A DNA stretch of 64,000 nucleotides from a virus, in IMG/VR virus record IMGVR_UViG_3300045988_125846, positions 1 through 64,000 of that record. One strand, 5' to 3'. Shown here one piece after another: positions 11,948-64,000 of the stretch; position 1 is the stretch's first letter, and every line of letters begins with the position of its first letter. The notes under the pieces are model-generated. The model saw only the letters and a program-made list of their open reading frames with translations. It searched no databases and was not told the origin of the DNA. The translations under genes were made by a program, and so were the position numbers.

Positions 11948-12109
11948 CTATCTCTCATCAACTAATTCTTCTAACACTCCACCAACTTCAGCAACAATAA
12001 TTCCTACTGCTAATGGAATAATCGAACCATTCACTAATGTTACAATTCCACCAATTACTCTGATTACTGATTTTCCTAAACTAATAAATAAATGTCCTTT
12101 ACTGTTCAT
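11948..12109 (-). CDS. small membrane protein (53 aa)
   Basis: Hand-found ORF MNSKGHLFISLGKSVIRVIGGIVTLVNGSIIPLAVGIIVAEVGG... Its ATG overlaps the stop of the upstream gene. Confidence 0.4.
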   Translation of the reverse strand: MNSKGHLFISLGKSVIRVIGGIVTLVNGSIIPLAVGIIVAEVGGVLEELVDER

Positions 12110-12635
12110 TTCTAATTTCCTCCATAATTTCTTCTACTATGTATTCACAATTTGATTCTGTAGAAGCAATCTCTTCATATTTAATATTGTACTGGCTTAA
12201 CTTATCAATAATTTCTTTTCTCACTTCTTTTGCTTCGTCTTCATTTTGGAATCTTCCTTCGTTCTCATAAGAGTGGTGTCTTGTGAGCAAATAATTTCTA
12301 TTATTGTATGAATTAAACACATTCAGTACAGTCTTATTAAAGTCTTCTCCCAACACTTCATCAGTGTTATATACAGCACATAAGATTAATGGTGAATCAA
12401 CAACCATAACCTGCACTTTATTCTTAACTCTACCCATCTTGAATGATTGTTTGCCAAATAAATATTCCTGGTGTTTAAATACTTCACCATTATTTTCATA
12501 TACCTTATCCTTGGCAAACTCCGAAACATATTCAGCGTTGATACCGTGTCTTTTTAATTGTGCTGTAATATCCATTGCACAGGTACTCTTACCTACTGAT
12601 GGTTCACCAAATAAATTTACAACAATTGTGTCCAT
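12099..12635 (-). CDS. P-loop NTPase (AAA_28-like / nucleotide-kinase-like)
   Basis: Walker A GEPSVGKST near the N-terminus; Walker B-like VMVVDSP. Confidence 0.6.
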   Translation of the reverse strand: MDTIVVNLFGEPSVGKSTCAMDITAQLKRHGINAEYVSEFAKDKVYENNGEVFKHQEYLFGKQSFKMGRVKNKVQVMVVDSPLILCAVYNTDEVLGEDFNKTVLNVFNSYNNRNYLLTRHHSYENEGRFQNEDEAKEVRKEIIDKLSQYNIKYEEIASTESNCEYIVEEIMEEIRNEQ

Positions 12636-17152: not shown

Positions 17153-18091
17153 TTAACTTACCTCTCTTTCTTTTTCTATATCCTCTACATATAAGAAAAT
17201 GTATCCTTGACACGTTTTATTAACTCTTGTGCAACATTTTGATATAGCACTCCTTGAACAGCCTATTATTTCTGCTGCTTCTGTTACCGATTTATATCTT
17301 GCAATTTCTTTATATTTCAAATCATATTGGATAACCTCTTTATAATGAGCCTCCTGTACTGCTCGTATCATAGATTCTGAATTTTTCTTCCCATATCTAC
17401 CATGTTTTTCTTTTGGTATTTTCTTATGAGCCTCTGACATTTTCTTTTTAGATTCGTTTGTGTGGTGTTTCCCATAAAAAGGATTATCCTCACTCAAATA
17501 TCTTTCTTTTGCTAAATTACTTAATACTTTTTTTGTTTCATCTGTATGATGTTTTCCGTAAAATGGATTCAACTCTCCAAGCACTCTATAATGTGCATCT
17601 TCAAGTTCCTTTTTACTTTTTGGTCTTCCAGTATTTGCAATTGCTATCTTCTGTTTTGTTTCTTCTGTATGATGCCTGCCTTGAAATGGATGTCCATATT
17701 TTTTCCAATGATCTTTTAGTTTTTTTTTCGTTTCCTCTGATGCTTTTCTACCTAATGCTTTTTGTCTTATTTTCTCTTTCGATTCTTCGCTTAATGTTGA
17801 ATTTTCACCACCTGAACGAATATTATATCCATATTTGCTATTTGTACTTTTATATTTTTTAATTAATTCTTCCTCTACTATATTAGCCATTTCTAAAGAC
17901 AATCCATCTATTAATACAACATGTTTGAAGTTGTTCCAACCATACTTATTAATAGCATTATTGAATGCAACACACGACTTATATCCCCACCCGCTATCCC
18001 AACGATCCTTTACATCTTCTTGACCTGTTTGACCTATATAAATCTTGCCATTAATTTTATTTATATGAACATATATTTTATAATTTTTCAT
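17153..18091 (-). mobile_element. free-standing GIY-YIG homing endonuclease gene with NUMOD3 repeats
   Basis: KIYVHINKINGKIYIGQTG...KYGWNNF (GIY-YIG). Repeated HPFQGRHHTEETKQKI / NPFYGKHHTDETKKVL / NPFYGKHHTNESKKKM. C-terminal HTH IGCSRSAISKCC. ATG at 18091 with SD GGTGA (track start 18118). Confidence 0.85.
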
Positions 18092-18130
18092 GTAAAAATC
18101 ACCATCCAATATTCTCAAAGAGTATATGAA

Positions 18131-18158: not shown

Positions 18159-21100
18159 AGACTGATACTCCTTTCTTTCTCACATACTCAAGCCATTTGC
18201 TATATGGCTTTAATTTTTCTACAATTACCTTTTCTTCGCTATCTTTCTTACAAAGAATTGCTACTTGCTGTCCTTTTTTTACTAAATCTTCATATTCCTT
18301 TAATTGACTATGCCATACAATTCCTTCAACAAGTCCAAAACTTGAATAGATATTTATATATGCGAACTGCTTACCATTCTTATCTTTTTTCTTTTGAACC
18401 TTTGCTATAATTCCAACTAAAGTACATTTCTCACCATCAGGTACATCCTCAAATGGTGTCAAGAATGTATAAGCTGCATCAAATGGATTATCATTGATAA
18501 ATACTTGTAATGTTTGGAATTCCCAAAACTGTTCGTCTTCAAGATATTTTTTGTTATCATCTATGTACTTTTGGAATCTTACCTTCTGATTTTCTTCAAA
18601 CTGTATCTTTTTCAATCTGTTATATTCAGTAAGTAGTGCTTCCTTGTCATATACAATTCGTTTTCCAGATGAAGGAATTACGTACTTCTTTAAGTCAATA
18701 TTCCAATCTTCTTCGAGTTTCTTATAGATAGGCAATGATTGAACTTCTGAGAATTTTAATGGTTGATACTCTGATTTAAGATATGATATAAGTTTTTCAC
18801 GCTTATTTTTACAAGGAATTGCACCAGATTTTATCAGTGCAATAACAGATGACTTACCTAAAGAAAGTCTCTGTATCAAATCATTAAACGATTTGTATAT
18901 ACCATTATTCTCTCTTTCTTCGATAATTTGCTTAGATAGTGATTCACCAATTCCACCAATAGCAGATAAACCAAAAAGAACCTTATCTTTATCAACTGTG
19001 AAATTCATTCCAGAATGATTGATATTCGGTGGCATAATATCCACATTAAAATACCTTGCATCAAGAATATACTTATTAATTGCACCTGCTTTATCTTTAT
19101 TCTGATTGAATAATGCTTTGAAAAAGTAAGTTGGGTAATGAGCTTTGAACCAAGCTGTCTCGAAACAAAGAACTGCGTAACTGTATGAATGCGATTTATT
19201 GAATAGATAACCGCCTTTTTGTGATAGTTCATTCGCAATTTTATCAGCAATTTCTTTAGAATATCCGTTTGCTACAATTTCACCACGAAGAATTTCTGAC
19301 TCTTTCTGTACTAATTCAACTATCTTTTTTCCAATCGCCTTACGGAATAAGTCAGCACCACCGTATGTTCTTCCACCAAACTTTTTAACAATATCAAGAA
19401 GCTGTTCCTGATAAATCATACAGTAATTTGTGTCTTTTAAAATTTCATCCATATCTGGATGAATTGATGGTGGTCTACTTCCACCTGTTGCCATTTCAAC
19501 ATACTCGTCAAGTGCTCCCATACTATCAGGTCTATATAATGCCAAGATGACAGATATAACCTCAAAGTCTAGTTGTTCAAGCTTTGGTTTTAATCGAATA
19601 AGCAAATCTTTCATTCCTGCTGATTCAACCTGGAATACACCATTAGTCTTACCACTTGCTAATAATTCATATGTAGGTCTGTCATTCTCAAATTCTGGAT
19701 TATTGATATCATAATCCCAAGGATCTAAGTGTAAATCATCCTTAATTTCCTTCACAAGATTAAGTGTTGCTACTCCAAGAAGGTCAAACTTTACAATTCC
19801 AATGTCTTCTACATAATGTTTATCAACTTGAATTACATGCTCGCCCTTAGTTCCTATTTTCATTGGCATATAGTCATTAATTGTTGTATCAACGATTCCA
19901 ACACCACCAGCATGAATAGAAACTGTTTTAACACGACCACTTAAATGCTTTGCAATATCAAACAAATCAGCATACTGTGGATTGTCTGCGAGTAAATTTG
20001 GATTTGCTTTCATACAGTCATCCCATTTATCGAATGTAAATTTCTGTGAAAGTTTTTGCATCTGATTATATGGAAATCCAAGTATCTTACCAACGTCAGT
20101 AATTGCAACTGTTGGAGTAATATACGAGTAGTTAATAATCTGGCATACTCTTTCTTCTCCATATTTGTCTACAAGGTAATCAATAATTGCATCTCTATTA
20201 CCAACGTCTGTATCAATATCAGGTAGTCCTACTCGTTCAGGATTTAAGAATCTCTCAAAAATGAGTCCATATTTAATTGGATCAATATCCGTGATATGAC
20301 AACAATAGCAAACTAAAGAACCTGCTGCACTTCCTCTTCCCTTACCAACTTCAATTCCAAGTTTCTCAGCAGCCTTAATAAAGTCCCATACGAACAAGAA
20401 ATAACCATCGAACCCCATCGAATGAATAATACCCATCTCGTAGTTCAATCTAGTTCTTCTTACTTGCTGTTCATCTTCGCTAAGATTATCATATCCTCTA
20501 TCTTTCCAACCTTGTCTCACTAAATGCCATAAAAATTCATTATTATCTCTATATCCATCAGGCAATGGGAATGTAGGTAACTGTGGCTTCTGAAATGGCA
20601 TATCTACATTTTTAATTAAATCTGCTACCTTATTAGTATTCTCTAATCCAAGACATACGTTTTCATATCCAATCTGACTATCCATAATTTCATGGATTTC
20701 ATCTTCAGATTGCATATAGCAACCTTCATATATCTCACTATTTTCGATAGCATTTTTGTCGTTGTTACTACTTTTTCTACCAATCTGAATAAGTTTGTCC
20801 TGATAATACAAATCTTCTTTTTTAGGTGCATGACTATCTGTTGTAATTATAAATGGGGTATTTGTTCTTTTTGAAAGCTCTAAGATTTTTTGGTTATATA
20901 AACACTGATCCTGATGAGAATGTGACTGCATCTCAAGAAAGAAATGGGGAAAAGCTTCTTTATACTCATTGATATATTCAATACACTTTTCGAAATCTGA
21001 TTCTCTTGCTAACTTACTTGCTAAACAAGCAGAAGAAATAACAAAATTCTCAGCATAAGGCTTTATGTCTTCTATTGTGCATCGTGGTTTAAAATAAAAC

Positions 21101-31287: not shown

Positions 31288-32145
31288 TTACTCTTCACCA
31301 ACAAATACCAATCTATCAATATATTCTCTGCCTTCGCCCTTGAAAATAGGAATATCTGTATCAATAACCCATTCTGTTCTATATTCAATAGCTCTGACTT
31401 CACCATTATATCCAGTTGATTTATTTTCAATTTTCTTTTTTACACAACAGCTTCCTCTCTTCTGATAAGTCGGTAAATCATTCCAGTTAATACCTTTCTG
31501 TATCATAAGCATATCCTGAATATCATTACATGACTTATTCTGCAATTCCTTGTGTGAGAAATTGGCTTGACCAACCATCTGAATTGAATTACGAGAAGCG
31601 TCAAGTTGTCGCCAATATACGAGATTTGTTACTTCTTCTTTTGGGATATTAAAGCAACGGGCATCGAACATTGCACCTTTGTTAATAGCTTTTTTATAAA
31701 TTTCCCATAACTTTCTATTTTCTTCAGTATCAATGCCATTATCGTTATATGCTAACTCTAAATCAAATTCCTTTACATATTTAGAAAAAATATTATTAAA
31801 CGCCATTGTTGCCATACTTGCAGCAATACTACAAATCTTTTGTACTTCATAATCAAACCATGCTGAAGATGTAAGCTTCTTATAATCAACAAGAATCAAT
31901 GTAATCTCATCTGACTGTGTGTAACCAAGAACACAGCCCTGAATATTCTCACATAAGTATTTCATTGTTTCCTGCATAGACTTAATTAACACTTCATCAA
32001 ACGGCTTATGGAATCCTCTTGTAAATGTGTGAAACGCCTTTCCGTCAATTCTGATAGCAACTGGGCATCTTCTCATTAATTTTGTCTTAGGAATCTACTC
32101 ATAAAATGTCTTCATCCTAACGCCTAAATCATCATGTACTGGCAT
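31288..32145 (-). CDS. Thg1-like protein (tRNA-His guanylyltransferase family, 3'-5' polymerase) with in-frame TAG at codon 17
   Basis: MPVHDDLGVRMKTFYE-TAG-IPKTKLMRRCPVAIRIDGKAFHTFTRGFHKPFD plus GYTQSDEITL match the Thg1/TLP palm (RxDGxxFxxFT, SDE). A strong SD (AGAGAGG) precedes ATG 32145; the internal ATG 32076 has none. Confidence 0.75.
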
Positions 32146-36049: not shown

Positions 36050-37141
36050 TCAGTTCACATCATTATGTGTTTCGCCATCTGAGTAATAAATGTTCCAATC
36101 CTTGAATAACTCAATCAACTTATCGTTATCCCAATCATATTCATTACAATGCGTAATGGCGATTGATTTTTTATCTCCGAAATCTTTTACATCATTAGAA
36201 CATCTACTATATAATTCTCCTAAATCCAATGTTCCATATCTCAATGTATCCTGGAATGGGTTTGGTATATTTGTTTTGTCAAACATATATTCATTGATAA
36301 ATCTCTTATTACATTCAGATGGAAATTTACCAGCACCATGTCTTGTTAAATAAGTACGAGATACATAACAAGTTTCAATATTTATCTCATCATTCCATTC
36401 AACATTTTCAATTATTCTCTTGGGATTTTTAATACCTGTATTAGACGGTGTTAAATGTGGAAAATATTCTGTGTTGTTCTGATCAAGCAATAAACCTTGT
36501 GCAGCTTCAAATACAATATTGTCAAACTGATTTAAGAAATAATTATCTGATATAGCCAATGAGTGATTATTCATAAAATCCCAATCATCTAAAAAGTGTT
36601 CAAATATACCATTATCAAAGAATATTCTTGACCATTCATCTGTTAATATGATATTCTCTCTTTCAAATTGTTCTAAGTAATATTCCCTGATATGATAATC
36701 CACATCAGTTATGCCAACTTTATATCTTTTAATCGTTTCAAAGATTCCTAAGCCACAACTACCGTGTTTATTTTTTCCACGATTTTCTTCAATAATCTGA
36801 TTTGCCATCATATCAAAAGGTGTTGTCAGCATACAATTTTGATTGATATAAACATTCGGAATATATCCTAATTTCATCAATTCATCATATTCCTGCTTAA
36901 AAATAATTGGATTAACAATAAAATCCTCAGATAAATATGTACTTGCATGATTGAATGTTCCAGATCCAAAATGATGAAAGACATGTCTGATTCCATCAGG
37001 CGTTGTTACGGTATGTCCTCTCTGAGCACCACCATTTGAACAAACAACAATACTATTAGGTTTCTGTGAGAAATAATCTGTCATTAATCCTTTTCCACAA
37101 TCTCCAAAGTTAGCACCTATCACAATCTTAATGTCTTTCAT
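36050..37141 (-). CDS. adenylosuccinate synthetase family protein (PurA/PurZ-like)
   Basis: 363 aa. GANFGDCGKG (cf. PurA GDEGKGK), NGGAQRGHTV (cf. GGHNAGHT), HHFGSG, GSCGLGI (cf. TTGRGIG). Confidence 0.8.
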   Translation of the reverse strand: MKDIKIVIGANFGDCGKGLMTDYFSQKPNSIVVCSNGGAQRGHTVTTPDGIRHVFHHFGSGTFNHASTYLSEDFIVNPIIFKQEYDELMKLGYIPNVYINQNCMLTTPFDMMANQIIEENRGKNKHGSCGLGIFETIKRYKVGITDVDYHIREYYLEQFERENIILTDEWSRIFFDNGIFEHFLDDWDFMNNHSLAISDNYFLNQFDNIVFEAAQGLLLDQNNTEYFPHLTPSNTGIKNPKRIIENVEWNDEINIETCYVSRTYLTRHGAGKFPSECNKRFINEYMFDKTNIPNPFQDTLRYGTLDLGELYSRCSNDVKDFGDKKSIAITHCNEYDWDNDKLIELFKDWNIYYSDGETHNDVN

Positions 37142-47849: not shown

Positions 47850-48356
47850 TTATTCTCCACTCAAAATCTCTTTAGGACAATAAATAATATTCTTACCAGC
47901 TTTCTGAGCTTTACGAATTGTTGACCATACACCACCTGATTTATCACCATCCCAAATTGCAAGTAAAATATCACAATGGTCAACCATATACTGATCTCTT
48001 ACATTATCACAGCCTTTATAAAATTCATCTGATAATTCAATCCATTCATCTGCTTCGTTTCTGAGCTTGCTATAATATTTATTTGATGAGTTATAATCCC
48101 TACAAGGTAAAATGCAATGCAATTTTAAATCTCTATTCTTTTCAAATTCTTCAGAAATACTCCTATAACTCTCTTTGATAACACAAGTATTTAGACCAAT
48201 TAAAATATCTGAGCCATTAGCCATTCCACAATAAACATCAGAAGCATCTAAAATCTGATTCATAATCCAATGTCCAATCTTGCTCCACTTAATATCTAAT
48301 TCATCTTCTGGCAATCCTAATCTCTGAGGTCTATGACCTGTTAATGCTATTTTCAT
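47850..48356 (-). CDS. YpsA/DUF1273-like SLOG-domain protein
   Basis: MKIALTGHRPQRLG, GMANGSDIL, ILPCRDY, DILLAIWDGDKSGG align by eye with the B. subtilis YpsA pattern. Confidence 0.6.
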   Translation of the reverse strand: MKIALTGHRPQRLGLPEDELDIKWSKIGHWIMNQILDASDVYCGMANGSDILIGLNTCVIKESYRSISEEFEKNRDLKLHCILPCRDYNSSNKYYSKLRNEADEWIELSDEFYKGCDNVRDQYMVDHCDILLAIWDGDKSGGVWSTIRKAQKAGKNIIYCPKEILSGE

Positions 48357-54785: not shown

Positions 54786-54795
54786 TAAAAATATT

Positions 54796-54838
54796 ACTAT
54801 ATATAGTGTCTATATTTTCTATAAACACTATATATAGT
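54796..54838 (-). promoter_or_regulatory. bipartite palindromic operator / promoter region (copy 3)
   Basis: Perfect ACTATATATAGT at 54796-54807 and 54827-54838, starts 31 nt apart. Lies directly after the nadE stop. Confidence 0.65.
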
Positions 54839-54845
54839 ATTTCAT

Positions 54846-55586
54846 TTACGCCTGATACATAAAACTTGGCATTGGCTGTAATTTAAACAGATTTTTCTCA
54901 TGCATTGAATCAATCTTAGCTTTTACTTCCTCACTTGGCTCAATTCCATCTCTGATGTATGCATCTAATTCAGCATAAGTAAATCCAAGGTTATCTTCAT
55001 CTGTCTTTCCACAAAGACCGTCAGTAGGTGTCTTATCAACTAATTCTGATGGAAGTCCTAACTCACGACCAATAGCCTTAACCTCTGTTACTGTAAGCTG
55101 AGATAACGGTGCAAACGAACCAAATCCGTCACCTCCGAAGGTCGCATAACCAACCCAATCCTCGGAAAGATTACAATTACAACTTGGTATACCGTTATTA
55201 CACTGAGCATAGAAATACAATTCTGTCATTCTAACTCTTGCAGGAACATTTACTTTAGCCTGTTCTGTAACAACTACTCCATTTGATTCCATTTCAGAAA
55301 TAATAGAATCAACGGTTGAACCGATATTAATAATTTTGTATTCAATCCCAAGATGATTTGCACATAAAATACTACAGTCAATATCTGACTGTTCATACTG
55401 TGGTAGCATAATACCTTTCACTCTATCAGCTCCTAGAGCAGAGACACATAAGGCTGCGACAACAGACGAGTCTTTACCGCCAGATAAAGCAACACAACAG
55501 TTCTTATCTGGGAATTTTTCTTCAAACAAATTTTTAATCCATTCGATACAATCATTTGTTACTTTCTTAACATCAAAATTATACAT
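54846..55586 (-). CDS. nadE: NH3-dependent NAD+ synthetase
   Basis: PP-loop ALSGGKDSSVVAAL, NVPARVRM, YATFGGDG, TPTDGL...DEDNLGFTY. Confidence 0.85.
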   Translation of the reverse strand: MYNFDVKKVTNDCIEWIKNLFEEKFPDKNCCVALSGGKDSSVVAALCVSALGADRVKGIMLPQYEQSDIDCSILCANHLGIEYKIINIGSTVDSIISEMESNGVVVTEQAKVNVPARVRMTELYFYAQCNNGIPSCNCNLSEDWVGYATFGGDGFGSFAPLSQLTVTEVKAIGRELGLPSELVDKTPTDGLCGKTDEDNLGFTYAELDAYIRDGIEPSEEVKAKIDSMHEKNLFKLQPMPSFMYQA

Positions 55587-55608
55587 AGGTTCTCCTTCAT
55601 TTATAGGT

Positions 55609-56412
55609 TTAATCAGTTATTTCCACTTTATAGTTATACAATGCCCTATATACAACTATAGGAAAATTATCATATTTGTTTTTATAATAGTCTGCAATTT
55701 CTTTTATATAGTTTTCTTTCTCTTTTTTATATGCACAAAATGCTTCTTCTGGTGTGTTAAATACACCGATATGTACTTGTTGTTTTGTATTTTTCGTATT
55801 ATTATTTAATTTTGAAACTTGTGCAATAAATTTTCCAAGTCTTTTATTAAAAGATACTCCTATTGGGTATTCCCCTCTTTTTGCGTCAGTTTTCGTGAAA
55901 AGAATATTAATACGTTCAGGAACGAAGATACATGTATCTTTTGAATATACTGTATTATTTTTATATAATATGTCTTTATCCAAACACATTTTCTCTTCTC
56001 CACATTCGTAAAAATTATCATTAAACCACTTTGAAAAGTTCGACAAATAAAACCACTCATCATCTACTTCGCATTTTTTGTAAGTCGGATATCGTGATAA
56101 ATCTATTTTATTATAACAACGCTTTAACATACCAACCCAGTATAAATATTCTTTTGTAAATGAATCATCTTGTTTTATTATTTCATTTCCTACTATACCG
56201 TGATTAAATACAGTAGGTAAAAATGTATCAAATGTAGTACCTTTAATAAAATTGCTATATGCCTGATGATATACAATGTTGTTCGTATCTAAGAATTGAA
56301 TATCAATATCTGTAGCATTTTTATATTTAATTATTTTCATTCTTTCGCCCTGTTTATTAACTACTATTTCCCAAAGTCTTTCCTTTGCTTGTGATTCAGA
56401 TATTTTAAACAT
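55609..56412 (-). mobile_element. putative free-standing homing endonuclease (HNH-like core + AP2-type DNA-binding domain)
   Basis: WVGMLKRCYN...YPTYKKCEVDDEW...LDKDILYKNNTVYSKDTCIFVPERIN block, plus IGVSFNKRLGKFIAQV...VHIGVFNTPEEAFCAYKKEKENYI (AP2-like). Interrupts the NAD operon. Confidence 0.6.
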
Positions 56413-56460
56413 AGGGTTATCTGTTTTTAAATGTGTTTCTTTTATTATATATTCTCCTTC

Positions 56461-57087
56461 CTACATTCGATTCATCACATCATAAAACCGAATTAAATAC
56501 TCATATACATTTCTAGGAACTAACTCTTTTACTTTTTCAAATTCACCTTTCTCACATAAATCTCTAACCAAACTTGAAGAAGTATGATTTTCTGGTATCT
56601 GAATTTCTGTGAAATGTTCTTTGTATTCCATAAGATTTGCTTCTCTCAAAGCATTCTCAAGGTTCTGACCTTCTCTCACACATGCTACAAAATTATATTC
56701 CTCAACAAACGGTTTCCAATTATACCAAGTTGTAAGTGTTTCAATATTATCCATTCCTAAACAAATATAGTATTCGTTGAAGATATAATCTTTTTCATTC
56801 ATATCTCTTATCTGAGTAATAGTATTGTATGTCCTCTGTGGAAAGAAGCTGGTTGTTTCAACTTCGGATGCCCACATATTATTTTCATCACAATTTGGCA
56901 TTGAATTAATCAGCGATACTCGACAATATCCAGGTATTAAAGTCTTTTTCTTCGCAACATATGTATCATGTGCAGGAATAAACAATATAGCATCGGCATT
57001 AACCGCTTTTTTAGCAGTCAATGCCATATCAACATGAGCGTTTGTAATCGGATTAAAACTTCCTGGTATAAGTAAAATTTTATTCAT
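56461..57087 (-). CDS. nadD: nicotinate/nicotinamide mononucleotide adenylyltransferase
   Basis: ILLIPGSFNPITNAHVDM (GxFxPxHxxH) and C-terminal SSSLVRD (ISSTxxR-like). Confidence 0.8.
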   Translation of the reverse strand: MNKILLIPGSFNPITNAHVDMALTAKKAVNADAILFIPAHDTYVAKKKTLIPGYCRVSLINSMPNCDENNMWASEVETTSFFPQRTYNTITQIRDMNEKDYIFNEYYICLGMDNIETLTTWYNWKPFVEEYNFVACVREGQNLENALREANLMEYKEHFTEIQIPENHTSSSLVRDLCEKGEFEKVKELVPRNVYEYLIRFYDVMNRM

Positions 57088-58288
57088 GATCCATTCTCCA
57101 ATTAATACATCTCTTTAGATAATCAACATAATCAGGGTTTTTACACATGCCTTTTCCTTCTACGTCAGAAACTTTTGCAACATCCATACCGTTACATTTA
57201 GTAGTTTTCATTACAATATTTAAAGCAGGAACATCTGTATCATTACTCAAATAAGTACCAATTCCAAATGCAACATTTACTCTATCATGGAAGTGTCTGA
57301 ATAACTTATCAGCTCTTTCAAAATCAAGACTGTCACTAAACAGAAGTGTCTTTGTCTTAGGATTTATACCAAGTGACTCATAATGATTAATCATCTTTTC
57401 ACCCCATTCAATCGGATCGCCACTATCATGTCTTACACCACTGAATAATGTTGCATATGTCAACTGAAAATCTTTCAAGAAACAATCAGTTGTAATTGTA
57501 TCTGTGAGCGCAATACCATTTAACACACCATACTCTCTAACCCATGCGTCTAGGGCATACCAGTTTGAATATGCTGGATTGTGCTTGTGATTGCCCTGAC
57601 CAGAACACATAATCCATTCATGAGCCATAGTTCCAACAGGCGTGAGATTATATTTCTTTGCGAGATATACATTAGATGTACCAACAAATTTAGATGGACT
57701 GTGTAATGTATCATTCAAATGTGAAAACTTCTTAACAGCTAACTCCTGTGCTTCAGCAGAAAGTCTTCTTCTAAGACCAAATTCAGAAAATGTACCAGCA
57801 TACCAATGACCGCTTCTGAGATTTTCATACTTTTCATCTAATCTCTTTTTGAAACTATTAAGCAATTCTTCATAGTTATATGCCATTCTGAAATATACTT
57901 CGTTTACAATCGCAAGTGTAGGAATCTCATACATAGATGTATTAAGCCATGTACCAAATGTTTCGATAGAAAGACCGCAATCTGAATCTGTTGTAATCTC
58001 AAAATCCTCATATCTTGGCTGCCACAATCTCAGAAAATCAACATACGAACCCTTCATCCATTTGATATTATCAATATAAGTAAGTTCATCTTCTGTGAAT
58101 CTCAAACCACAATATAATTTAATCTGTCTGCGAATCTCTTCTACCATTTCTGGTGTAAAATGAACATCCTTATTACGACACTTAAAACTCCAAGTGGTTT
58201 TATAATCACTAAACTGATGATAAATAGCCTGTCCCATTGACAATTTGTAGGCATCTGTCTCAAATAAACTTGTAATAATCTGCTCCAT
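57080..58288 (-). CDS. pncB: nicotinate phosphoribosyltransferase
   Basis: MEQIITSLFETDAYKLSMGQ..., GTFSEFGLRRR, GTSNVYLAKKYNLTPVGTMAHEW. ATG at 58288 with SD AGAAGG (the track extension to 58381 overlaps the upstream gene). Confidence 0.85.
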   Translation of the reverse strand: MEQIITSLFETDAYKLSMGQAIYHQFSDYKTTWSFKCRNKDVHFTPEMVEEIRRQIKLYCGLRFTEDELTYIDNIKWMKGSYVDFLRLWQPRYEDFEITTDSDCGLSIETFGTWLNTSMYEIPTLAIVNEVYFRMAYNYEELLNSFKKRLDEKYENLRSGHWYAGTFSEFGLRRRLSAEAQELAVKKFSHLNDTLHSPSKFVGTSNVYLAKKYNLTPVGTMAHEWIMCSGQGNHKHNPAYSNWYALDAWVREYGVLNGIALTDTITTDCFLKDFQLTYATLFSGVRHDSGDPIEWGEKMINHYESLGINPKTKTLLFSDSLDFERADKLFRHFHDRVNVAFGIGTYLSNDTDVPALNIVMKTTKCNGMDVAKVSDVEGKGMCKNPDYVDYLKRCINWRMDHE

Positions 58289-58289
58289 A

Positions 58290-58844
58290 TTATTTACCTT
58301 CTTTCTTGATTTGATTAAATATTGTTCTAATATCATATTCTCTGTTTTCGTACTCATAAAACAGATTAATATACTTATCAATAAAAGCTATATCATTTGG
58401 ATGCATTGCAATTGGTTTACTTTTCTTAGATTTCCACCATTTTAATTCCTTCTCAAAATTAAATGATTTACCATGATATGCTCTACCTGCTCCAAGATAA
58501 TCACAAAGCATTTCTTTTTTATACTTCATTGGCATTTCAATAGGATTTCCACCATTATCAAAATTGTCTTCCCAATACTCGTAGTGGTGCTTGTTTCTTC
58601 CTTTATGGTGCATCCAAGCAGCCGACCAACCATTCTCTTTCTTACAAGCGTCTATTGGACTTGAAGTACCTTGATAATACTTAACACTCTCCCAAAATTC
58701 CGTTGGAGAAAATTTAGATAAATCATGTACTAACCCTTGAAATGGAATTCCCACTTTACAGCAATAGTAGAACACCCAACGTTTATGAGTACAGACTTTC
58801 TTAAAATGTCTAAAAGTATTAATGATATAATTCTTATACTTCAT
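58290..58844 (-). CDS. HD-motif protein of unknown function (DUF5662-like, from memory)
   Basis: FRHFKKVCTHKRW...GLVHDLSKF...WMHHKGRNKHHYEYW (H...HD...H-rich). ATG at 58844 lies 6 nt after GGAG and inside the pncA 3' end. Its stop is 1 nt from the pncB ATG. Confidence 0.55.
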   Translation of the reverse strand: MKYKNYIINTFRHFKKVCTHKRWVFYYCCKVGIPFQGLVHDLSKFSPTEFWESVKYYQGTSSPIDACKKENGWSAAWMHHKGRNKHHYEYWEDNFDNGGNPIEMPMKYKKEMLCDYLGAGRAYHGKSFNFEKELKWWKSKKSKPIAMHPNDIAFIDKYINLFYEYENREYDIRTIFNQIKKEGK

Positions 58845-59358
58845 TATTTTCTCCAATCACTTCAATCTGACAACTTTTCATAACTTCCATAGCAGCTTTA
58901 TGTTTATCAGGTGTGACACCTGCACAGCAACTAGCATCTACTGTAATATCAATCTCAGGATAATTTGCTCTAATAATAAGTGCATTTGAAATTACGCAGA
59001 TACTTGTGCATAATCCGCAGATTTCAACACTTTTAAATTTAAAATCATCCCAATGTGCCCATCCAAAAGTAATTTTGTCAATCAGAATGTCATTATCAAT
59101 ATCAAGATCTAACTTATCTGAAATCTGCCAACCAACAGTATTCTTTACACAGTGAGTAACAGGAAGATGTACACCTTCATATGTCTCTAAATAATTCTCA
59201 GAGTGTGTGTCTCTTGTAAAGATTACCTGTTTACCAGCATCCTTGTACTCCTTAATTTTCTTTGCTACATTTGATACAATCGCCTGTGCTTCCTTTGTAC
59301 CAAGCGTTCCATCAATAAAATCATTCTGCATATCTACAACAATTAATGTTTCTCTCAT
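58834..59358 (-). CDS. pncA: nicotinamidase / isochorismatase-family hydrolase
   Basis: LIVVDMQNDFIDGTLG, FTRDTH, ICGLCTSICVISNAL (Asp-Lys-Cys type). Confidence 0.8.
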   Translation of the reverse strand: MRETLIVVDMQNDFIDGTLGTKEAQAIVSNVAKKIKEYKDAGKQVIFTRDTHSENYLETYEGVHLPVTHCVKNTVGWQISDKLDLDIDNDILIDKITFGWAHWDDFKFKSVEICGLCTSICVISNALIIRANYPEIDITVDASCCAGVTPDKHKAAMEVMKSCQIEVIGENNEV

Positions 59359-59392
59359 TTTGTTACCTCTTTTCTTTGTTCTTATATGTATT

Positions 59393-59402
59393 TATTCTCT
59401 GA
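59393..59402 (-). promoter_or_regulatory. gene-boundary motif TCAGAGAATA
   Basis: Plus strand tattctctga, upstream of pncA. Confidence 0.4.
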
Positions 59403-59407
59403 AAACT

Positions 59408-59431
59408 CAGAAGAAAAAAAAATATTTCTTG
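59408..59431 (-). repeat. intergenic IR element
   Basis: Plus strand: cagaagaaaaaaaaatatttcttg. Confidence 0.4.
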
Positions 59432-59487
59432 TTACTTTTATTTGGAAAATTTGGCTGAATCGCCAAGATAGAAATTTCTATATATGA

Positions 59488-60365: not shown

Positions 60366-61757
60366 TTAATATTTAATCCAACCATCTGTAATACCAGTCA
60401 TCCAATAAATAAGATCTTCTCTATCATTTTTTAATCTTCCATCTATTACACGAGTTAAGATTTCATTGAGCCAGTAGCCAACTTCTTTTCCACTTTTAAT
60501 GAGCATTGTATCCATTACATCCTTACCATTAACTGCTAAATCCTTTAGAGAAAAACATTCATCATCCTGTAAGACTTCTTCTAAAATATATCCAATGTTA
60601 TCAATCTTCTGTAATCTTGTTTCCTGATTAATGTCTGCTTGTGCTTTAATATCAGCTCTACGAACATTTAATAACCTTCTGAACTGTTCTTCTCCAATTT
60701 TATTAAGCCATCTCTTGACATATTTCTTTCCAACCTCAAAAGTAGCATCATGATAATAAACAAGCTGTACAACCTTTTCTCTTGTATCATTATCAAAACG
60801 AAGTCTTTTCATAATTGTATCAGTCATATCAGCACTGACTTTTCCATGTCCTTTGAAATGTCTGATACCATCTTCTCCATCCTGATAACAATGTGGTTTT
60901 CCTATGTCATGAAAGAATACCGCTAATGATGTAATTAAATCTATTGGATTTAAGTCTTCTTCACAATCACAAGAATATGCTTCTACAGCATGAATTGTAT
61001 GTTCCCATACATCATAGATGTGATATGGATTATTCTGTGGAAAATCAAACATATCTTTTATTTCAGGAATAAACAATGATAATACATCGCTATATAAAAC
61101 CATCTGTACACAGAAATCACTTGATGCAGCGATTTTACAGAACTCACTATTTATCCTTTCAACTGATATATTCTTCAAATTCTGATACACCTTATGTAAA
61201 ACATAATCTGTATTTGGTTCAAGAACAAAATCCAACTGAGAAGCAAATCTGATAGCTCGTAAAATTCTCAAAGCATCTTCATCGAATCTATCTTCTGGTT
61301 TACCAACACACTGAATTTTGTGATACTTTATATCTTCCATGCCATTAAACGGATCTACAAGACCAACTTCATCATTGTATGCCATCGCATTGATTGTAAA
61401 ATCTCTACGCTTTAAATCTTCTTCAAGACTTTTTGTAAAAGTTACTTTATCTGGTCTACGGCTATCAGAATAATTACCATCAATTCTGTATGTTGTTACT
61501 TCATATGGTTCTCCATCAATGACAATCGTTATTGTTCCATGCTGTAAGCCAGTTTCAATAATTCTTTTATCCTTGAATACTTCCATCATCTCATCAGGTG
61601 TAGCAGATGTTGTAATGTCATAATCGTGAATTGGTCTTTCCAGAATGCTATCACGAACACAGCCACCAACTAAATATGCTTCGTATCCTTTATCTTGGAG
61701 TATATGAATAATCTCATTTGCACCAGATGGGATTTTAATTTTTAATTTAGATTTCAC
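60366..61757 (-). CDS. cca: CCA-adding enzyme (tRNA nucleotidyltransferase, class II, with HD domain)
   Basis: YLVGGCVRDSIL...DYDITT, GTITIV, RRDFTINAMA, ALRILRAIRFASQL, HD domain FFHDIGKP. Confidence 0.85.
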   Translation of the reverse strand: MKSKLKIKIPSGANEIIHILQDKGYEAYLVGGCVRDSILERPIHDYDITTSATPDEMMEVFKDKRIIETGLQHGTITIVIDGEPYEVTTYRIDGNYSDSRRPDKVTFTKSLEEDLKRRDFTINAMAYNDEVGLVDPFNGMEDIKYHKIQCVGKPEDRFDEDALRILRAIRFASQLDFVLEPNTDYVLHKVYQNLKNISVERINSEFCKIAASSDFCVQMVLYSDVLSLFIPEIKDMFDFPQNNPYHIYDVWEHTIHAVEAYSCDCEEDLNPIDLITSLAVFFHDIGKPHCYQDGEDGIRHFKGHGKVSADMTDTIMKRLRFDNDTREKVVQLVYYHDATFEVGKKYVKRWLNKIGEEQFRRLLNVRRADIKAQADINQETRLQKIDNIGYILEEVLQDDECFSLKDLAVNGKDVMDTMLIKSGKEVGYWLNEILTRVIDGRLKNDREDLIYWMTGITDGWIKY

Positions 61758-62775
61758 CCTTAACCACCCTTTCGTTTACACTTGCAACAAACTCATTGAT
61801 TTTCTTGTAGTCTGGATTTTCAGGAAGATTAGTATTTTTCTTTGCATAATCCAATCTCTTCTCATAGTCATTTACCATTTCAAAGAACTCAGGAATTGGC
61901 TGATCGTTGCTGTCGAGATATTTACCATTACGAATATCCATAAGCAAATCATGTTCATCTTCTCTATATGTGATTATTCTCTCTTTCTCAAGAATATCTA
62001 AACACATCATATAAAGTCGAATAAGATGCATTGAATGTTTTGCAATTTTACCATGCTCAATAGCTTTCTCATTTCTTTTACCAATCTTTCCATACTGACG
62101 AACTGTGTTCTGAAGTTCATTCCACATAGAGCAATAATCTCTTAATGGATAATGAGTAAGGTTTACATCCATAAAAATCTCTGTGTCATATCCTTCCTGC
62201 ACAGCCTTATCAATATATAACTTCATTGAATCATCTGAATATGGTGTGTATTTCTTTGTAAAATCTGTCTGCATAAATTCAAGCGTCTTTAAAATGTGTT
62301 TCTCCAATTCTGACTGAGACATCTGATGTGCTGCTTTCTGGTTCAATCTATAGAGCTGCTGATTCGCATATCCTCCAAACGAATGACAAGCTCTCTTTGA
62401 TAAAAATAAATGTGCATTATCAATTAGTTCCTGACCAATAGATGATACATAAAAGTAATGTTCAGGTTTATTTCCAAGCATTTCTATTGTATTAGGATTC
62501 GTATTACTTAACAATGCTACTAACTTATTAAAGGCATAAATAGTTGTGTCTGTCTCATTGTTTACAAACTGCTCAAAATTCTCATTTGTGAGGATCTGCA
62601 TCTTGCTATTCAAAGCACAACCACGAATATCTAAATCACTGCCTTCATTGTTTGTTCCATATGCATGACTTCCACCAAGAGTTAAGATAATGATATTGTT
62701 ACCTAAATTCTTATCTGTTCTCAGGAAGTCATACTCTTTTGATTTTAATTTGTCCTTAATCTGTTCAATTGTCAT
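61747..62775 (-). CDS. RlaP-like Pol-beta-superfamily nucleotidyltransferase
   Basis: TLGGSHAYGTNNEGSDLDIRG (GS...D-x-D). ATG at 62775 lies 8 nt after GGAGG. Overlaps the cca start by 11 nt. Confidence 0.6.
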   Translation of the reverse strand: MTIEQIKDKLKSKEYDFLRTDKNLGNNIIILTLGGSHAYGTNNEGSDLDIRGCALNSKMQILTNENFEQFVNNETDTTIYAFNKLVALLSNTNPNTIEMLGNKPEHYFYVSSIGQELIDNAHLFLSKRACHSFGGYANQQLYRLNQKAAHQMSQSELEKHILKTLEFMQTDFTKKYTPYSDDSMKLYIDKAVQEGYDTEIFMDVNLTHYPLRDYCSMWNELQNTVRQYGKIGKRNEKAIEHGKIAKHSMHLIRLYMMCLDILEKERIITYREDEHDLLMDIRNGKYLDSNDQPIPEFFEMVNDYEKRLDYAKKNTNLPENPDYKKINEFVASVNERVVKGEI

Positions 62776-62795
62776 TGTCTTAACCTCCAAAATTT

Positions 62796-62921: not shown

Positions 62922-63014
62922 TTATTTATTCTTCTTACGTTTTCCTACAATAAAACCTGCTCCAAAGCATACACCGAGACAGATTACGAAAACTCCAATG
63001 TTTAATACAATCAT
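62922..63014 (-). CDS. small membrane protein (30 aa)
   Basis: Hand-found ORF MIVLNIGVFVICLGVCFGAGFIVGKRKKNK. TAATG overlap with the upstream stop. Confidence 0.4.
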   Translation of the reverse strand: MIVLNIGVFVICLGVCFGAGFIVGKRKKNK

Positions 63015-63763
63015 TACTTATTACCTCTCTGTCTCTTCATATCATCAAGGATCTGGCGAGCATTGCGCTCTCTTTCAGAATTAGCAAGTCTTCTCTCATT
63101 AGCCTGTGCGCTAGAATCATATGCAATTCTACTTCCTTCTGCACGTTCTCTTGTCTTTCTTGCTCCTTCACGAACTCTTTCAAGCATTCTATCACTCTCA
63201 TTATTTGTATTAAGATTATCCATACTCTGATGAAGTTCGATAATCTGACTATCGGCTTCCATCTGAAAAAGAACCTGTTCCTTTTCCTCTTTAAGTTTCT
63301 GCAATTCTTCGGCTGCCTGATCACGAATGTCTTTTTGGTGAGCCTGTGCTTCTCTCATCTCTTCAATTGTATCTTTTAGTACATTAATCTTATTCTCCAA
63401 AGTAGACTTCTTCATTGCATACTGCATTGCTTCATTTTCTTTGTTTTCATCAAGACAAGCGTTAATCTGCTGTGTAACACGCATAATATCTTTATTTGCC
63501 TGATATAAGTCTTTTTCTGCTGTATCACGCTTTCCTGAAATTTCAGCATATGTAGCAGATGCCTTGTTATAAAAATCTTCCTTTTCTCTAATGGCTGCGT
63601 TATAATAATCTCTAGCACCTTCTGGTGTCTGTGCATCCTGACGCATTACTTCATCTGTTCTTCCTTTAAACTTTACTCGAAGCTGTTTACCAAAAGGAGT
63701 AAAGAAAAGAATCAGTGCAATTAATACAATCGCCACAATTATAATAAACATAAAATTTGTCAT
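63014..63763 (-). CDS. PspA/IM30-like coiled-coil protein with N-terminal TM helix
   Basis: N-terminal FMFIIIVAIVLIALILFF, then about 220 aa of PspA-like coiled coil (…AEKDLYQANKDIMRVTQQINACLDENKENEAMQYAMKKSTLENKINVLKDTIEEMREAQ…). Confidence 0.55.
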   Translation of the reverse strand: MTNFMFIIIVAIVLIALILFFTPFGKQLRVKFKGRTDEVMRQDAQTPEGARDYYNAAIREKEDFYNKASATYAEISGKRDTAEKDLYQANKDIMRVTQQINACLDENKENEAMQYAMKKSTLENKINVLKDTIEEMREAQAHQKDIRDQAAEELQKLKEEKEQVLFQMEADSQIIELHQSMDNLNTNNESDRMLERVREGARKTRERAEGSRIAYDSSAQANERRLANSERERNARQILDDMKRQRGNK

Positions 63764-63772: not shown

Positions 63773-64000
63773 CTACTCTGCATCAATTCCATACTGATTA
63801 CATAATGCCTTTAATCCACCATTATAGCCACTTCCTACAGCCTTAAACTTCCATTCGCCATTATGTTTATATATTTCAGATACGACTAACGCAGTCTCGG
63901 TAGAGAAGTCTTCACTTAAATCAAAACGAATAAGCTCCTCGCCTGTCTCTTCGTCTACTACACGCACATATGCATTTCCAACCATACCGAAGTTCTGAAG
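63773..64000 (-). CDS. TerD-domain protein (3' part; gene continues beyond the window edge)
   Basis: ...[64 protein letters not shown] is the C-terminal half of a TerD domain. The frame is open to position 64000. Confidence 0.75.

Follow-up and report, generated by a model that had tools for sequence, protein, structure and literature searches.

A predicted nicotinamide-to-NAD+ salvage operon in a human-gut phage

Why would a phage carry its own genes for each step leading from nicotinamide to NAD+? This question is raised by a 155.5 kb scaffold, of which the initial 64 kb (the window) was analysed here. Its minus strand encodes, in 5′ to 3′ order of the operon, PncA, a DUF5662 protein, PncB, NadD, an HNH/AP2 endonuclease and NadE (Table 1). 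All six ORFs were confirmed at these positions, every motif quoted in an earlier note on this DNA is present, and public annotation of the source scaffold sets the same gene boundaries.

Table 1. Positions in the window of the operon genes and of the elements that border or interrupt them.
Feature	Position	Strand	Description
Intergenic region 5′ of PncA, 129 nt	59359..59487	-	Shine-Dalgarno sequence AAGAGG
PncA-type nicotinamidase, 174 aa	58834..59358	-	nicotinamide + H2O -> nicotinate + NH3 (predicted); PF00857, 6.5e-28
DUF5662 protein, 184 aa	58290..58844	-	PF18907, 1.5e-32; His-rich, all-helical; lies between PncA and PncB, translationally coupled
PncB, ATP-coupled nicotinate phosphoribosyltransferase, 402 aa	57080..58288	-	nicotinate + PRPP -> NaMN (predicted)
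NadD-like nicotinate(/nicotinamide) mononucleotide adenylyltransferase, 208 aa	56461..57087	-	NaMN + ATP -> NaAD (predicted); PF01467
Mobile cassette with HNH/AP2 homing endonuclease gene	55599..56444	-	in the NadD-NadE spacer; outside the pathway
NadE, single-domain NH3-dependent NAD+ synthetase, 246 aa	54846..55586	-	NaAD + ATP + NH3 -> NAD+ (predicted)
Terminator-like hairpin	54795..54839	-	20-pair stem then T-run, immediately past the NadE stop; consensus and repeat scan only

The tight coupling of the genes that was claimed earlier can be read directly from the sequence. The DUF5662 ATG (58844) sits 11 nt within the 3′ end of PncA, the spacing from the DUF5662 stop to the PncB ATG is 1 nt, and an overlap of 8 nt (ATGAATAA) joins PncB to NadD. 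Spacers of 48 nt and 22 nt separate NadD from the HNH gene and the HNH gene from NadE, respectively, and a GGAG-type Shine-Dalgarno sequence is present at every start. Because four consecutive pathway steps are encoded in one co-directional, translationally coupled block, the arrangement is not due to chance. The hairpin past NadE probably represents the 3′ end of the transcription unit, and the intergenic region ahead of PncA is possibly a promoter region, with a promoter scan giving matches at chance level and no recognisable independent promoter.

Profile, structure and motif searches support all four enzyme assignments made in the earlier note, and the catalytic motifs are intact. The solved sequence closest to PncA is P. 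horikoshii nicotinamidase (1ILW, 1.5e-16), and an AF2 model (pLDDT 85.6) superimposes with a TM of ~0.8 on the nicotinamidases of B. subtilis, P. horikoshii, S. mutans and S. pneumoniae. Its triad (D9/K95/C121) and metal ligands (D50/H52/H69) are invariant across 20 homologues, and its score of 31.8 bits falls under the NCBIfam nicotinamidase equivalog cutoff of 174 bits. PncB exceeds the cutoffs of both NF003704 (479 bits; cutoff 379) and TIGR01514 (401 bits; cutoff 269.55), contains the Pfam domains PF04095 and PF17767, and matches 1YIR (1.7e-95) with GTMAHEW (H223) aligned.

The NadD-like protein scores 102.7 bits against TIGR00482, slightly below the cutoff of 112.45, and has S. aureus and B. 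anthracis NadD as its closest solved relatives (5e-10). It carries the motifs GSFNPITNAH (residues 9-18) and SSSLVRD (170-176) and falls in a small clade of 88 clusters that is restricted to phages, two members of which are named nicotinate(-nicotinamide) nucleotide adenylyltransferase in public sources. It may prefer NaMN over NMN. NadE is recognised by TIGR00552 (145 bits; cutoff 63.65), PF02540 (8.4e-44) and phrog_11189 ‘NAD synthetase’ (2.7e-50), matches 2E18 (6.9e-34), and has the PP-loop SGGKDS at residues 35-40. From these gene identities and intact motifs, the operon is predicted to be a deamidating four-step nicotinamide-to-NAD+ salvage set.

The fifth protein of the block, termed an HD-motif ORF in the earlier note, is not a detectable member of the HD superfamily, with Pfam HD matches in 0 of 28 family members; an HD dipeptide alone is no evidence for an HD phosphohydrolase. 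The protein belongs to the DUF5662 family, in which H13, H20, K21, H40, D41, H79, H80, H86, H87, E89, D93, E111, C114 and D115 are invariant. A confident AF2 model (pLDDT 92) has no significant structural neighbour in PDB or BFVD, and sequence searches returned no solved relative. The gene occupies the identical slot in the diverged phages L084, L222 and L312, which share the entire five-gene order, and it is missing from some operon variants.

The similarity of PncB to bacterial genes raises the possibility that this DNA belongs to the host or arose by mis-assembly, or that the genes are decaying passengers. PncB is 77-85% identical to its Lachnospiraceae counterparts, and a 3.4 kb stretch of the ‘viral’ contigs L071 and L073 is 95% identical to the Agathobacter chromosome, with no PHROG signal in the flanks of these contigs. 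However, GC content is uniform at ~32% throughout the window compared with 44% for the Agathobacter locus, and all window genes share the same strand, the operon being bordered by phage replication genes at one end and by RNA-repair genes of phage type at the other. The replication module matches PHROGs for DNA polymerase (925 bits), RecJ, DnaB, NrdD, ligase and integrase. A PncB relative is present on 164 IMG/VR contigs, and the operon block is carried by over 100 independent contigs from that collection, each 90-215 kb long. The block is also present in most of 65 related loci with full flanks (PncB 65, NadE 65, PncA 60, NadD 58, DUF5662 54).

Decay is contradicted by purifying selection on all five operon genes, with dN/dS well below 1 in each (medians of 0.18 for PncA, 0.08 for DUF5662, 0.065 for PncB and 0.07 for NadD; 0.04-0.09 among close alleles of NadE, which is a mosaic of 45-100% identity across relatives). 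A host or decaying origin of the region is thus effectively refuted, and the scaffold, the replication module and the 164 contigs uphold the phage origin assumed in the earlier note. The source is most probably a common human-gut phage that infects Lachnospiraceae.

The module itself is host-derived, given the PncB identity and the existence of a Lachnospiraceae pncA-pncB-nadE operon. Host loci have the form pncA-pncB(-nadE), and some in the genome scan have no pncA or nadE beside pncB. In Agathobacter sp. LCP21S3_B2, which shares the pathway, the pncA-pncB-nadE order and a PncB of 85% identity, the operon reads Nudix-NrtR_WHD-adenylyltransferase / pncA / pncB / nadE. A 474-aa Nudix-wHTH-adenylyltransferase fusion occupies the place of the phage NadD, and the host NadE is a glutamine-dependent protein of 628 aa with a CN_hydrolase domain that the short NH3-type phage enzyme lacks. 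Identity between phage and host falls to ~40-55% for PncA and 25-50% for NadE, and neither DUF5662 nor this NadD clade occurs in the host loci scanned, which further argues against host DNA. Sequence comparison therefore indicates a streamlined and remodelled descendant of the Lachnospiraceae operon, tightly coupled in translation, to which the phage has added DUF5662, a NadD of its own and a short NadE of the NH3 type.

What the phage gains from these genes is less certain. We give a probability of roughly 0.5 to the reading that this is a functional phage NAD+ salvage operon that keeps up the NAD+ pool, including against NADase systems. The operon would be expressed as a single unit during infection and would rebuild NAD+ from nicotinamide. 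PncA would convert nicotinamide to nicotinate and set NH3 free, PncB would form NaMN at the expense of PRPP and ATP, NadD would consume ATP to yield NaAD, and NadE would complete NAD+ with ATP and NH3, its ammonia need equalling the amount set free by PncA. Nicotinamide is the product of NADase effectors, and its earlier designation as the entry substrate is chemically correct. The likeliest selective benefit would be an NAD+ pool upheld while it is drained, including by NADase abortive-infection systems. The enzyme activities, the ammonia balance, the stage at which the genes are expressed and, most of all, any benefit against host defences are inferred.

This counter-defence reading is supported by the precedents of NARP2 and NARP3. 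NARP2 (Nampt + Nmnat) has been proven to counteract NADase defences (Osterman et al., 2024), and it is likewise phage-encoded, taking in nicotinamide, PRPP and ATP and giving out NAD+. The operon studied here may work in a similar manner through other intermediates: NARP2 takes two steps via NMN, whereas four steps via nicotinate, NaMN and NaAD, including an amidase and an amidating synthetase, are predicted here from the genes alone. There is no Nampt in the operon, its PRTase being a genuine NAPRTase, as evident by the 479 bits of PncB to NF003704 versus 67 bits to the Nampt PHROG. NARP3 (PnuC + NadR) salvages nicotinamide riboside and counters NADase defences (Yan et al., 2026; PMC13464706). 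It and NARP1 are also phage NAD+-restoring modules with different enzymes, NARP3 using imported nicotinamide riboside and NARP1 (Adps + Namat) using ADPR and nicotinamide. Neither gene pair was found within or beside the operon here, but the PnuC + NadR pair lies 4 kb upstream of the five-gene operon on the 225 kb contig L084.

The genomic neighbourhood also favours the counter-defence reading. Genes for RNA repair and DNA methylation lie on its flanks, the latter encoding DNA methyltransferases, and give the window an anti-defence flavour, and the PnuC/NadR pair of L084, together with the Nudix and Macro genes that adjoin PncB-NadE in L076-L082, suggests NAD/ADPR conflict in relatives. Several points count against it. 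Each turn of the route would use up PRPP and three ATP, in a futile cycle whenever an NADase is active, and the scanned ORFs of the window include no recognised PRPP synthetase. In addition, PncA and NadD score below NCBIfam equivalog cutoffs, and the operon duplicates the host's own set, as ordinary auxiliary metabolic genes do.

Tpt1 and sirtuins consume NAD+ and set nicotinamide free, and nicotinamide inhibits sirtuins. Beside the operon, relatives carry Tpt1 at 7 loci and SIR2 and RNA ligase at 5 loci each, and these Tpt1 and SIR2 neighbours, which also count against the counter-defence reading, combine with the near copy of a host salvage operon to make a metabolic role a serious rival. 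The operon would then be an ordinary auxiliary metabolic one with no part in immunity, providing NAD+ for the replication burst and for phage NAD+ consumers while recycling nicotinamide. The RNA-repair neighbourhood (RlaP and a CCA-adding enzyme, with a Thg1-like gene at another place in the window) fits this self-supply, which is exactly the model argued by Li et al. (2024; Microbiome, PMC11662467). However, no NAD+-consuming enzyme is present among the scanned window ORFs, the window ligase is ATP-dependent, and Tpt1 or SIR2 occurs in a minority of relatives although the operon is near-universal in the lineage. NARP2, with equal input and output, proved to be a counter-defence. We consider self-supply possible, if the less probable of the two roles.

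Working in silico only, Li et al. (2024; PMC11662467) described pncB-nadD-nadE ‘Preiss-Handler’ clusters in jumbo phages and stated both the counter-defence and the self-supply hypotheses. The suggestion that the present operon is a distinct four-step solution must therefore be qualified: its enzymes differ from those of NARP1-3, of which NARP3 is a later addition to the two routes named in the earlier note, but phage clusters of pncB-nadD-nadE were already known. The NAD-jumbo phages share the clustered genes and a gut origin, but exceed 200 kb compared with ~155 kb here, and their main clade, Kuafu, has predicted Bacteroidota hosts in place of the presumed Lachnospiraceae. PncA heads the operon here, such that entry would be at nicotinamide rather than nicotinate, and a conserved DUF5662 gene lies within the block, unlike in the NAD-jumbo clusters. 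Our analysis adds residue-level, structural, selection and host-origin evidence. In the deposited gut phage Phass-1 (OQ749652.1), an annotated nicotinamidase likewise heads a cluster with a PRTase and a NadE-like gene (nicotinamidase / Prs / NAMPT-like PRTase / hypothetical / NadE-like), for which its authors give no pathway reading. It differs by a PRPP synthetase, another PRTase family, the lack of DUF5662 and no recognisable NadD.

A benefit to the lysogen, rather than in the lytic cycle, is allowed by an integrase gene (136-1449) and by a copy of the same phage region on a 1.25 Mb contig (L088), a candidate integration. As prophage cargo, the operon would supplement the niacin/nicotinamide salvage of a Lachnospiraceae host in the gut, or supply it where it is missing, consistent with the operon's own terminator-like hairpin and with those host loci that show no pncA or nadE next to pncB. 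We regard this as unlikely, because the operon is embedded in, and co-directional with, early and replication-type phage genes, has no recognisable promoter of its own, and is hit by homing endonucleases like other conserved lytic-cycle genes.

The endonuclease gene noted earlier as inserted before NadE indeed resides on a mobile cassette. Alignment with relative L014 gives exact borders for an 846 bp insertion and reveals a duplicated Shine-Dalgarno region. The coding sequence (55609-56412, 267 aa) matches phrog_953 (5e-64) and, weakly, AP2. It is present in 12 of the 65 full-flank relatives, most being without the insertion, and of 74 loci with both NadD and NadE, 56 have a gap shorter than 50 nt between the two.

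The five genes of the NAD+ operon were found on the minus strand where the earlier note had placed them, complete with the motifs quoted there, as evident both by a check of the sequence and by the publicly available gene calls for the source scaffold (ENA ERZ28622646, QINJ12-1_SAMN00792092 scaffold_22, 155,513 bp), whose first 64 kb constitute the window with identical coordinates. The overlapping and abutting junctions claimed in that note were also seen on reading the sequence. The gene for DUF5662 starts 11 nt within the 3′ end of the PncA gene, its stop codon is separated by 1 nt from the ATG of PncB, and the PncB-NadD overlap is 8 nt. A GGAG-type ribosome-binding site is present at every start in the operon, and a 20-pair hairpin followed by a run of T nucleotides lies directly 3′ of NadE. 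Given these tight junctions and the terminal hairpin, the block looks like a single transcription unit. A promoter scan of the operon region gave matches at chance level and was uninformative.

Features of the window, with the number of related loci (65 with full flanks) in which each operon-associated gene is present
Feature	Position	Strand	Profile match	Present in related loci
Tyrosine-integrase-like gene	136-1449	-	phrog_1, 2.5e-76	
dUTPase-like gene	1698-2135	-		
MazG-like gene	2151-2570	-		
AAA_28 ORF	12099-12635			
NUMOD endonuclease	17153-18118			
Thg1-like 3′-5′ polymerase	31288-32076	-	phrog_4717, 8e-85	
PurA-like short protein (363 aa)	36050-37141	-	phrog_1211, 1.9e-64	
YpsA-type SLOG domain protein	47850-48356	-	PF06908, 2.1e-07	
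NadE	54846-55586	-		65/65
HNH/AP2 cassette	55599-56444			
HNH/AP2 homing endonuclease CDS	55609-56412			12/65
NadD	56461-57087	-		58/65
PncB	57080-58288	-		65/65
DUF5662	58290-58844	-		54/65
PncA	58834-59358	-		60/65
CCA-adding enzyme with HD domain	60366-61757	-		
RlaP nucleotidyltransferase	61747-62790	-		
PspA/IM30-like protein	63014-63763	-		
TerD gene end	63773-63985	-		

The identities proposed earlier for PncA, PncB, NadD and NadE are borne out by profile, solved-structure and motif matches, and alignment reveals that the catalytic motifs of all four proteins are intact. Together these enzymes would convert nicotinamide to nicotinate, NaMN, NaAD and finally NAD+, a predicted enzymology that we consider very probably correct. 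PncB is unambiguously predicted to be a type I, ATP-coupled nicotinate phosphoribosyltransferase. It scores 479 bits with NF003704 (cutoff 379) and 401 bits with TIGR01514 (cutoff 269.55), contains the N-terminal and catalytic NAPRTase domains (PF17767 and PF04095), matches P. aeruginosa PncB (1YIR) at 1.7e-95, and carries at residues 219-225 the phospho-histidine motif GTMAHEW, which is the same as the aligned motif of 1YIR. NadE is a single-domain protein of 246 aa that lacks a glutaminase domain, carries the PP-loop SGGKDS at residues 35-40, and scores 145 bits with TIGR00552 (cutoff 63.65). All of the solved proteins that match it best are NH3-dependent enzymes, and it is predicted to be an NH3-dependent NAD+ synthetase. 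NadD, a putative NaMN adenylyltransferase, carries both nucleotidyltransferase motifs ((H/T)xxH in GSFNPITNAH and SxxxxR in SSSLVRD) and aligns over its full length with staphylococcal and bacillary NadD (residues 1-198 with the S. aureus enzyme). It scores 102.7 bits with TIGR00482, just under the cutoff of 112.45, also gives weak matches to human NMNAT1, and falls in a small clade (88 clusters) without close cellular relatives.

PncA is the weakest call of the four because its family match is to the generic isochorismatases alone (isochorismatase-like fold; PF00857, 98.4 bits) and it falls far under the nicotinamidase equivalog NF008623 (31.8 bits versus a cutoff of 174), a model built on the longer enterobacterial nicotinamidase. 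Support for its predicted role as a nicotinamidase is nevertheless good. Among solved proteins, its sequence is closest to that of the P. horikoshii nicotinamidase 1ILW, and an AlphaFold model (pLDDT 85.6) aligns to solved nicotinamidases by Foldseek with a TM-score of ~0.8. The catalytic residues D9, K95 and C121 are invariant in 20 homologues reaching down to 64% identity. D9 and C121 pair with D10 and C133 of 1ILW, and K95 comes after the equivalent strand but within a shortened loop, and therefore the equivalence of K95 is one of position and invariance. The metal ligands D50, H52 and H69 pair with D52, H54 and H71 of 1ILW and are likewise invariant in the 20 homologues; it is this Asp-x-His...His metal site that distinguishes nicotinamidases from other members of the isochorismatase superfamily. 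In addition, many Lachnospiraceae genomes have an isochorismatase-family gene immediately upstream of pncB.

All five genes of the operon are under purifying selection. Median dN/dS values are 0.18 for PncA, 0.08 for DUF5662, 0.065 for PncB and 0.07 for NadD, and values for NadE, which come from close alleles only, range from 0.04 to 0.09.

The earlier note treated the region as phage rather than host DNA, and the composition, strand bias, gene content and relatives of the window all agree with this. GC content is uniform at ~32%, all but one of the ORFs ≥150 aa lie on the minus strand, and the window carries a phage replication module comprising a DNA polymerase (phrog_405, 925 bits), RecJ, a DnaB-like helicase, NrdD/NrdG, an ATP-dependent ligase and an integrase. 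Relatives of PncB are encoded on 164 IMG/VR contigs, mostly of 90-215 kb, and the sizes of the relatives are mostly 90-196 kb, with a few that reach 206-216 kb. It is therefore very improbable that the region is host DNA or an artefact. Two IMG/VR ‘viral’ contigs (L071, at 5758-9169, and L073) were handled separately. They have in common a 3.4 kb segment encoding a Nudix-NrtR_WHD-adenylyltransferase, PncA and PncB that is 95% identical to the chromosome of Agathobacter sp. LCP21S3_B2, and their flanks are unrelated and give no PHROG signal. These contigs are ambiguous, and might represent host genes captured very recently by a virus, or else host DNA that was binned as viral. Because only 3.4 kb is common to them and the flanks carry no viral signal, they were not counted as phage evidence. 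Their reading as a phage variant in which a Nudix-NadM fusion displaces NadD was withdrawn, as the fusion is 97% identical to an Agathobacter chromosomal protein.

Between NadD and NadE, the HNH/AP2 cassette is a clean 846-bp insertion in the spacer with a duplicated Shine-Dalgarno region, as evident by alignment with the related locus L014, and among 74 loci with both genes, 56 have <50 nt between the NadD stop and the NadE start. Other inserts of 600-1300 nt are found in relatives (L003-L082) at the PncA/DUF5662, DUF5662/PncB and NadD/NadE junctions. In addition, NadE is mosaic among otherwise near-identical operons, with protein identities of 45-100% versus 97-99% for PncB and NadD. For example, the NadE gene of the window and that of a related locus (L003, 9829-10662) share 68% nucleotide identity in the 5′ part and 92% in the 3′ part. 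This mosaicism suggests allele replacement by recombination beside the endonuclease site, and the inserts and the mosaic NadE are typical of the movement of homing endonucleases near conserved genes of phages. Elsewhere in the window, a NUMOD endonuclease gene adjoins the DNA polymerase gene.

The operon derives from a bacterial chromosome. Phage PncB is 77-85% identical to the chromosomal PncB of Agathobacter, Roseburia, Butyrivibrio, Lachnospira and Eubacterium uniforme, a similarity from which the host is assigned, as a probable member of the Lachnospiraceae. Agathobacter sp. LCP21S3_B2 carries a four-gene operon, flanked by ABC transporters, that encodes a Nudix-NrtR_WHD-adenylyltransferase fusion, PncA, PncB and a glutamine-dependent NadE of 628 aa, and pncA-pncB pairs, with or without nadE, are present in many other Lachnospiraceae. 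The identity of PncB and the existence of these host loci show that the phage module is a captured and remodelled host salvage operon. Whereas PncB is nearly unchanged, phage PncA has diverged to about 40-55% identity, a phage-specific stand-alone NadD takes the place of the host fusion protein, the short, NH3-type NadE is 25% identical to the host enzyme, and DUF5662, which the host loci lack, has been inserted. Ammonia released by PncA would stoichiometrically cover the demand of NadE, and the phage enzyme could for this reason do without a glutaminase domain.

What advantage such a module gives to the phage is less certain. We assign a probability of roughly one half to a role in counter-defence, or in NAD+ homeostasis under depletion. 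The predicted input and output are the same as those of NARP2 (Nampt and Nmnat), which is reported to defeat NADase systems. PncA heads the operon, and the product of NADases would therefore be the entry point of the route. Sister lineages carry Nudix and Macro domain proteins beside PncB-NadE, and the operon surroundings are rich in RNA-repair genes and DNA methyltransferases. Furthermore, in a different large phage represented by a related 225 kb contig (L084, 77-9049; JGI 3300029705), the NARP3 gene pair, NadR(+AAA_28) and PnuC, is located 4 kb upstream of PncA-DUF5662-PncB-NadD-NadE, an arrangement that would place two NAD+ routes in one genome. RlaP is encoded downstream of the NAD operon in this contig.

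Other observations on the relatives favor a simpler role, in which the operon only boosts NAD+ for the phage's own needs. Tpt1, an NAD+-dependent RNA 2′-phosphotransferase, is present in 7 and SIR2 in 5 of the 65 relatives with full flanks. In a close relative (L089), the variable region upstream of PncA (3934-7533) carries IS605 OrfB/TnpB-like, Tpt1 and SIR2-family genes, and an RNA ligase is encoded downstream (18775-19683). Both Tpt1 and SIR2 use NAD+ and release nicotinamide, and both adjoin the operon in some relatives. The module also duplicates the existing capacity of the host, and the same argument has been made for jumbo phages by Li et al. (PMC11662467). However, no NAD+-consuming enzyme was found among the window ORFs scanned, and we regard this supply role as possible but less likely than counter-defence.

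The operon might instead benefit a lysogen. The tyrosine-integrase-like gene lies at the scaffold end, and a copy of this phage region is found at 352-373 kb within a 1.25 Mb ENA contig (L088; ERZ28750010 contig_216), which together suggest a temperate lifestyle. Lysogenic conversion is conceivable given the integrase and the copy on the large contig, but the operon sits among lytic-type genes, and such a benefit seems quite unlikely.

Whether the operon acts in counter-defence or otherwise, its gene content distinguishes it from the described NAD+-restoring modules. Unlike NARP2, which pairs Nampt with an NMN adenylyltransferase and lacks both an amidase and NadE, the operon includes both of the latter proteins and its phosphoribosyltransferase is a NAPRTase equivalog that scores only 67 bits against the Nampt PHROG. 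Neither a Prs-like (Adps) or Namat-like protein, as in NARP1, nor the PnuC and NadR pair of NARP3 was found in the operon or the scanned window ORFs, although the latter pair is present in the relative L084. PncA, PncB, NadD and NadE are not mentioned in the 2024 NARP paper, the 2026 NARP3 paper (PMC13464706) gives only NARP1 and NARP2 as prior routes, and the searchable literature held nothing relevant on a ‘NARP4’ or on a tested phage deamidating route.

The proposal in the earlier note that the operon is a distinct deamidating solution therefore stands insofar as NARP1-3 use other enzymes, but it is not new in outline, because two kinds of cluster precede it. As far as the accessible text of Li et al. 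(2024; PMC11662467) extends, complete salvage or Preiss-Handler pathways are reported for 174 gut jumbo phages, clustered pncB-nadD-nadE is named and counter-defence is proposed, all in silico, with pncA mentioned only in passing. The window likewise has pncB, nadD and nadE clustered on a phage genome, but those ‘NAD-jumbo phages’ exceed 200 kb and its source scaffold does not. The second precedent is Phass-1 (L324; OQ749652.1, 96860-101298), a gut phage with an alternative genetic code, in which a co-directional cluster headed by an annotated nicotinamidase also encodes a ribose-phosphate pyrophosphokinase, a 532-aa ‘nicotinamide phosphoribosyltransferase’, a hypothetical protein and a NadE-like protein. 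The authors who described the phage did not read this cluster as a pathway. Phass-1 is the only deposited phage found with an analogous cluster, which is built from different genes, and our search among isolated and deposited phages returned none with the same operon and no near-DNA match. Atu_ph07 carries pncB alone. The pncB genes of ‘Acinetobacter phage MD-2021a’ (L322; CAKLQH020000008.1) and Moraxella phage Mcat17 (L323; KR093641.1) are host DNA, as evident by the accompanying housekeeping genes serB, psd and phoBR in the former and by the position of the match outside attR in the latter. Several points are nevertheless new here. PncA stands first in a unit of five translationally coupled genes, of which DUF5662 is a conserved member, and the unit belongs to an abundant, non-jumbo lineage of Lachnospiraceae phages. 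Also new are the host origin and remodelling demonstrated by comparison with bacterial loci, and the evidence from individual residues and from selection.

DUF5662 was described in the earlier note as an HD-motif protein, an assignment that does not hold. The ORF belongs to the Pfam family DUF5662 (1.5e-32), and no HD family was matched at E≤10 by any of 28 members. Its predicted structure is confident (pLDDT 92) and all-helical, and the best Foldseek match, an HD-GYP domain, is not significant (E 0.75, TM 0.3). PDB sequence and profile searches gave no match and a BFVD structure search gave nothing usable. An HD phosphohydrolase was therefore rejected, as was the macro-type ‘phage phosphatase’ of extended NARP1, which is a Macro domain protein. 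Public sources offer no name for the family and the searchable literature does not mention it, yet it is very large (at least 8,000 scored candidates) and strongly conserved, with an invariant His/Asp/Glu/Cys pattern.

The genomic context of DUF5662 cuts both ways with regard to a role in the NAD+ pathway. At least three other diverged lineages of phages (L084, L222 and L312) have it in the same position, with the gene order PncA-DUF5662-PncB-NadD-NadE. However, it is missing from some operon variants, in which PncA abuts PncB, and an NAD-specific function is weakened by many viral loci that carry DUF5662 without NAD genes, where its neighbors are RNA-ligase-like, gyrase, RNase H and FolD-like genes. 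The most far-reaching reading is that the operon constitutes a fourth, deamidating NAD+-reconstitution pathway (‘NARP4’) that shields abundant gut Lachnospiraceae phages from NADase immunity with DUF5662 as its fifth enzyme. In such a pathway, DUF5662 would act as a metalloenzyme, rich in His and of a new fold, that might use ADPR or another NADase by-product derived from it as substrate, or might clear an inhibitory intermediate, so that the route matches the rate of depletion. We consider this full scheme unlikely. Regardless, the family is large and strongly constrained with a confident but unmatched fold, and its position in the operon provides a concrete starting place for establishing function.

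NAD+ depletion is among the commonest outcomes of bacterial anti-phage immunity, and each of the phage routes that rebuild NAD+ (NARP1, 2 and 3) was a notable finding. A complete deamidating route from nicotinamide has so far been catalogued only by computer. If counter-defence is indeed its role, then any salvage chemistry available from a host can be recruited, and the NAD+ arms race would extend to strictly anaerobic gut Firmicutes, in which, to our knowledge, hardly anything has been tested. In human-gut data this lineage is very common, with single 90%-identity protein clusters that contain >1,000 member sequences, and therefore niacin and NAD turnover across the gut community may be influenced by the operon as well.

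Several other genes in the window were noted. The AAA_28 ORF was considered as a nicotinamide riboside kinase and rejected, as its PHROGs match is thymidylate-kinase-like. Just upstream of the NAD operon lie the genes for the CCA-adding enzyme and RlaP, and the Thg1-like polymerase is encoded elsewhere; in relatives, this tRNA/RNA-repair set additionally includes Tpt1 and an RNA ligase. YpsA-type SLOG proteins are predicted binders of nucleotide- or NAD-derived ligands, and a link of the family member in the window to NAD/ADPR signalling is possible. The PurA-like protein matches the PurZ-type PHROG ‘2-aminooxy adenylosuccinate synthetase’, and MazG-like and dUTPase-like genes are also present; the phage may replace adenine with 2-aminoadenine (Z-genome). 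Finally, the PspA/IM30-like gene and the TerD gene end are followed on the source scaffold past the window (L001, 1-5275) by three tandem TerD genes and a P-type cation ATPase, a stress or membrane module that is unusual for a phage.
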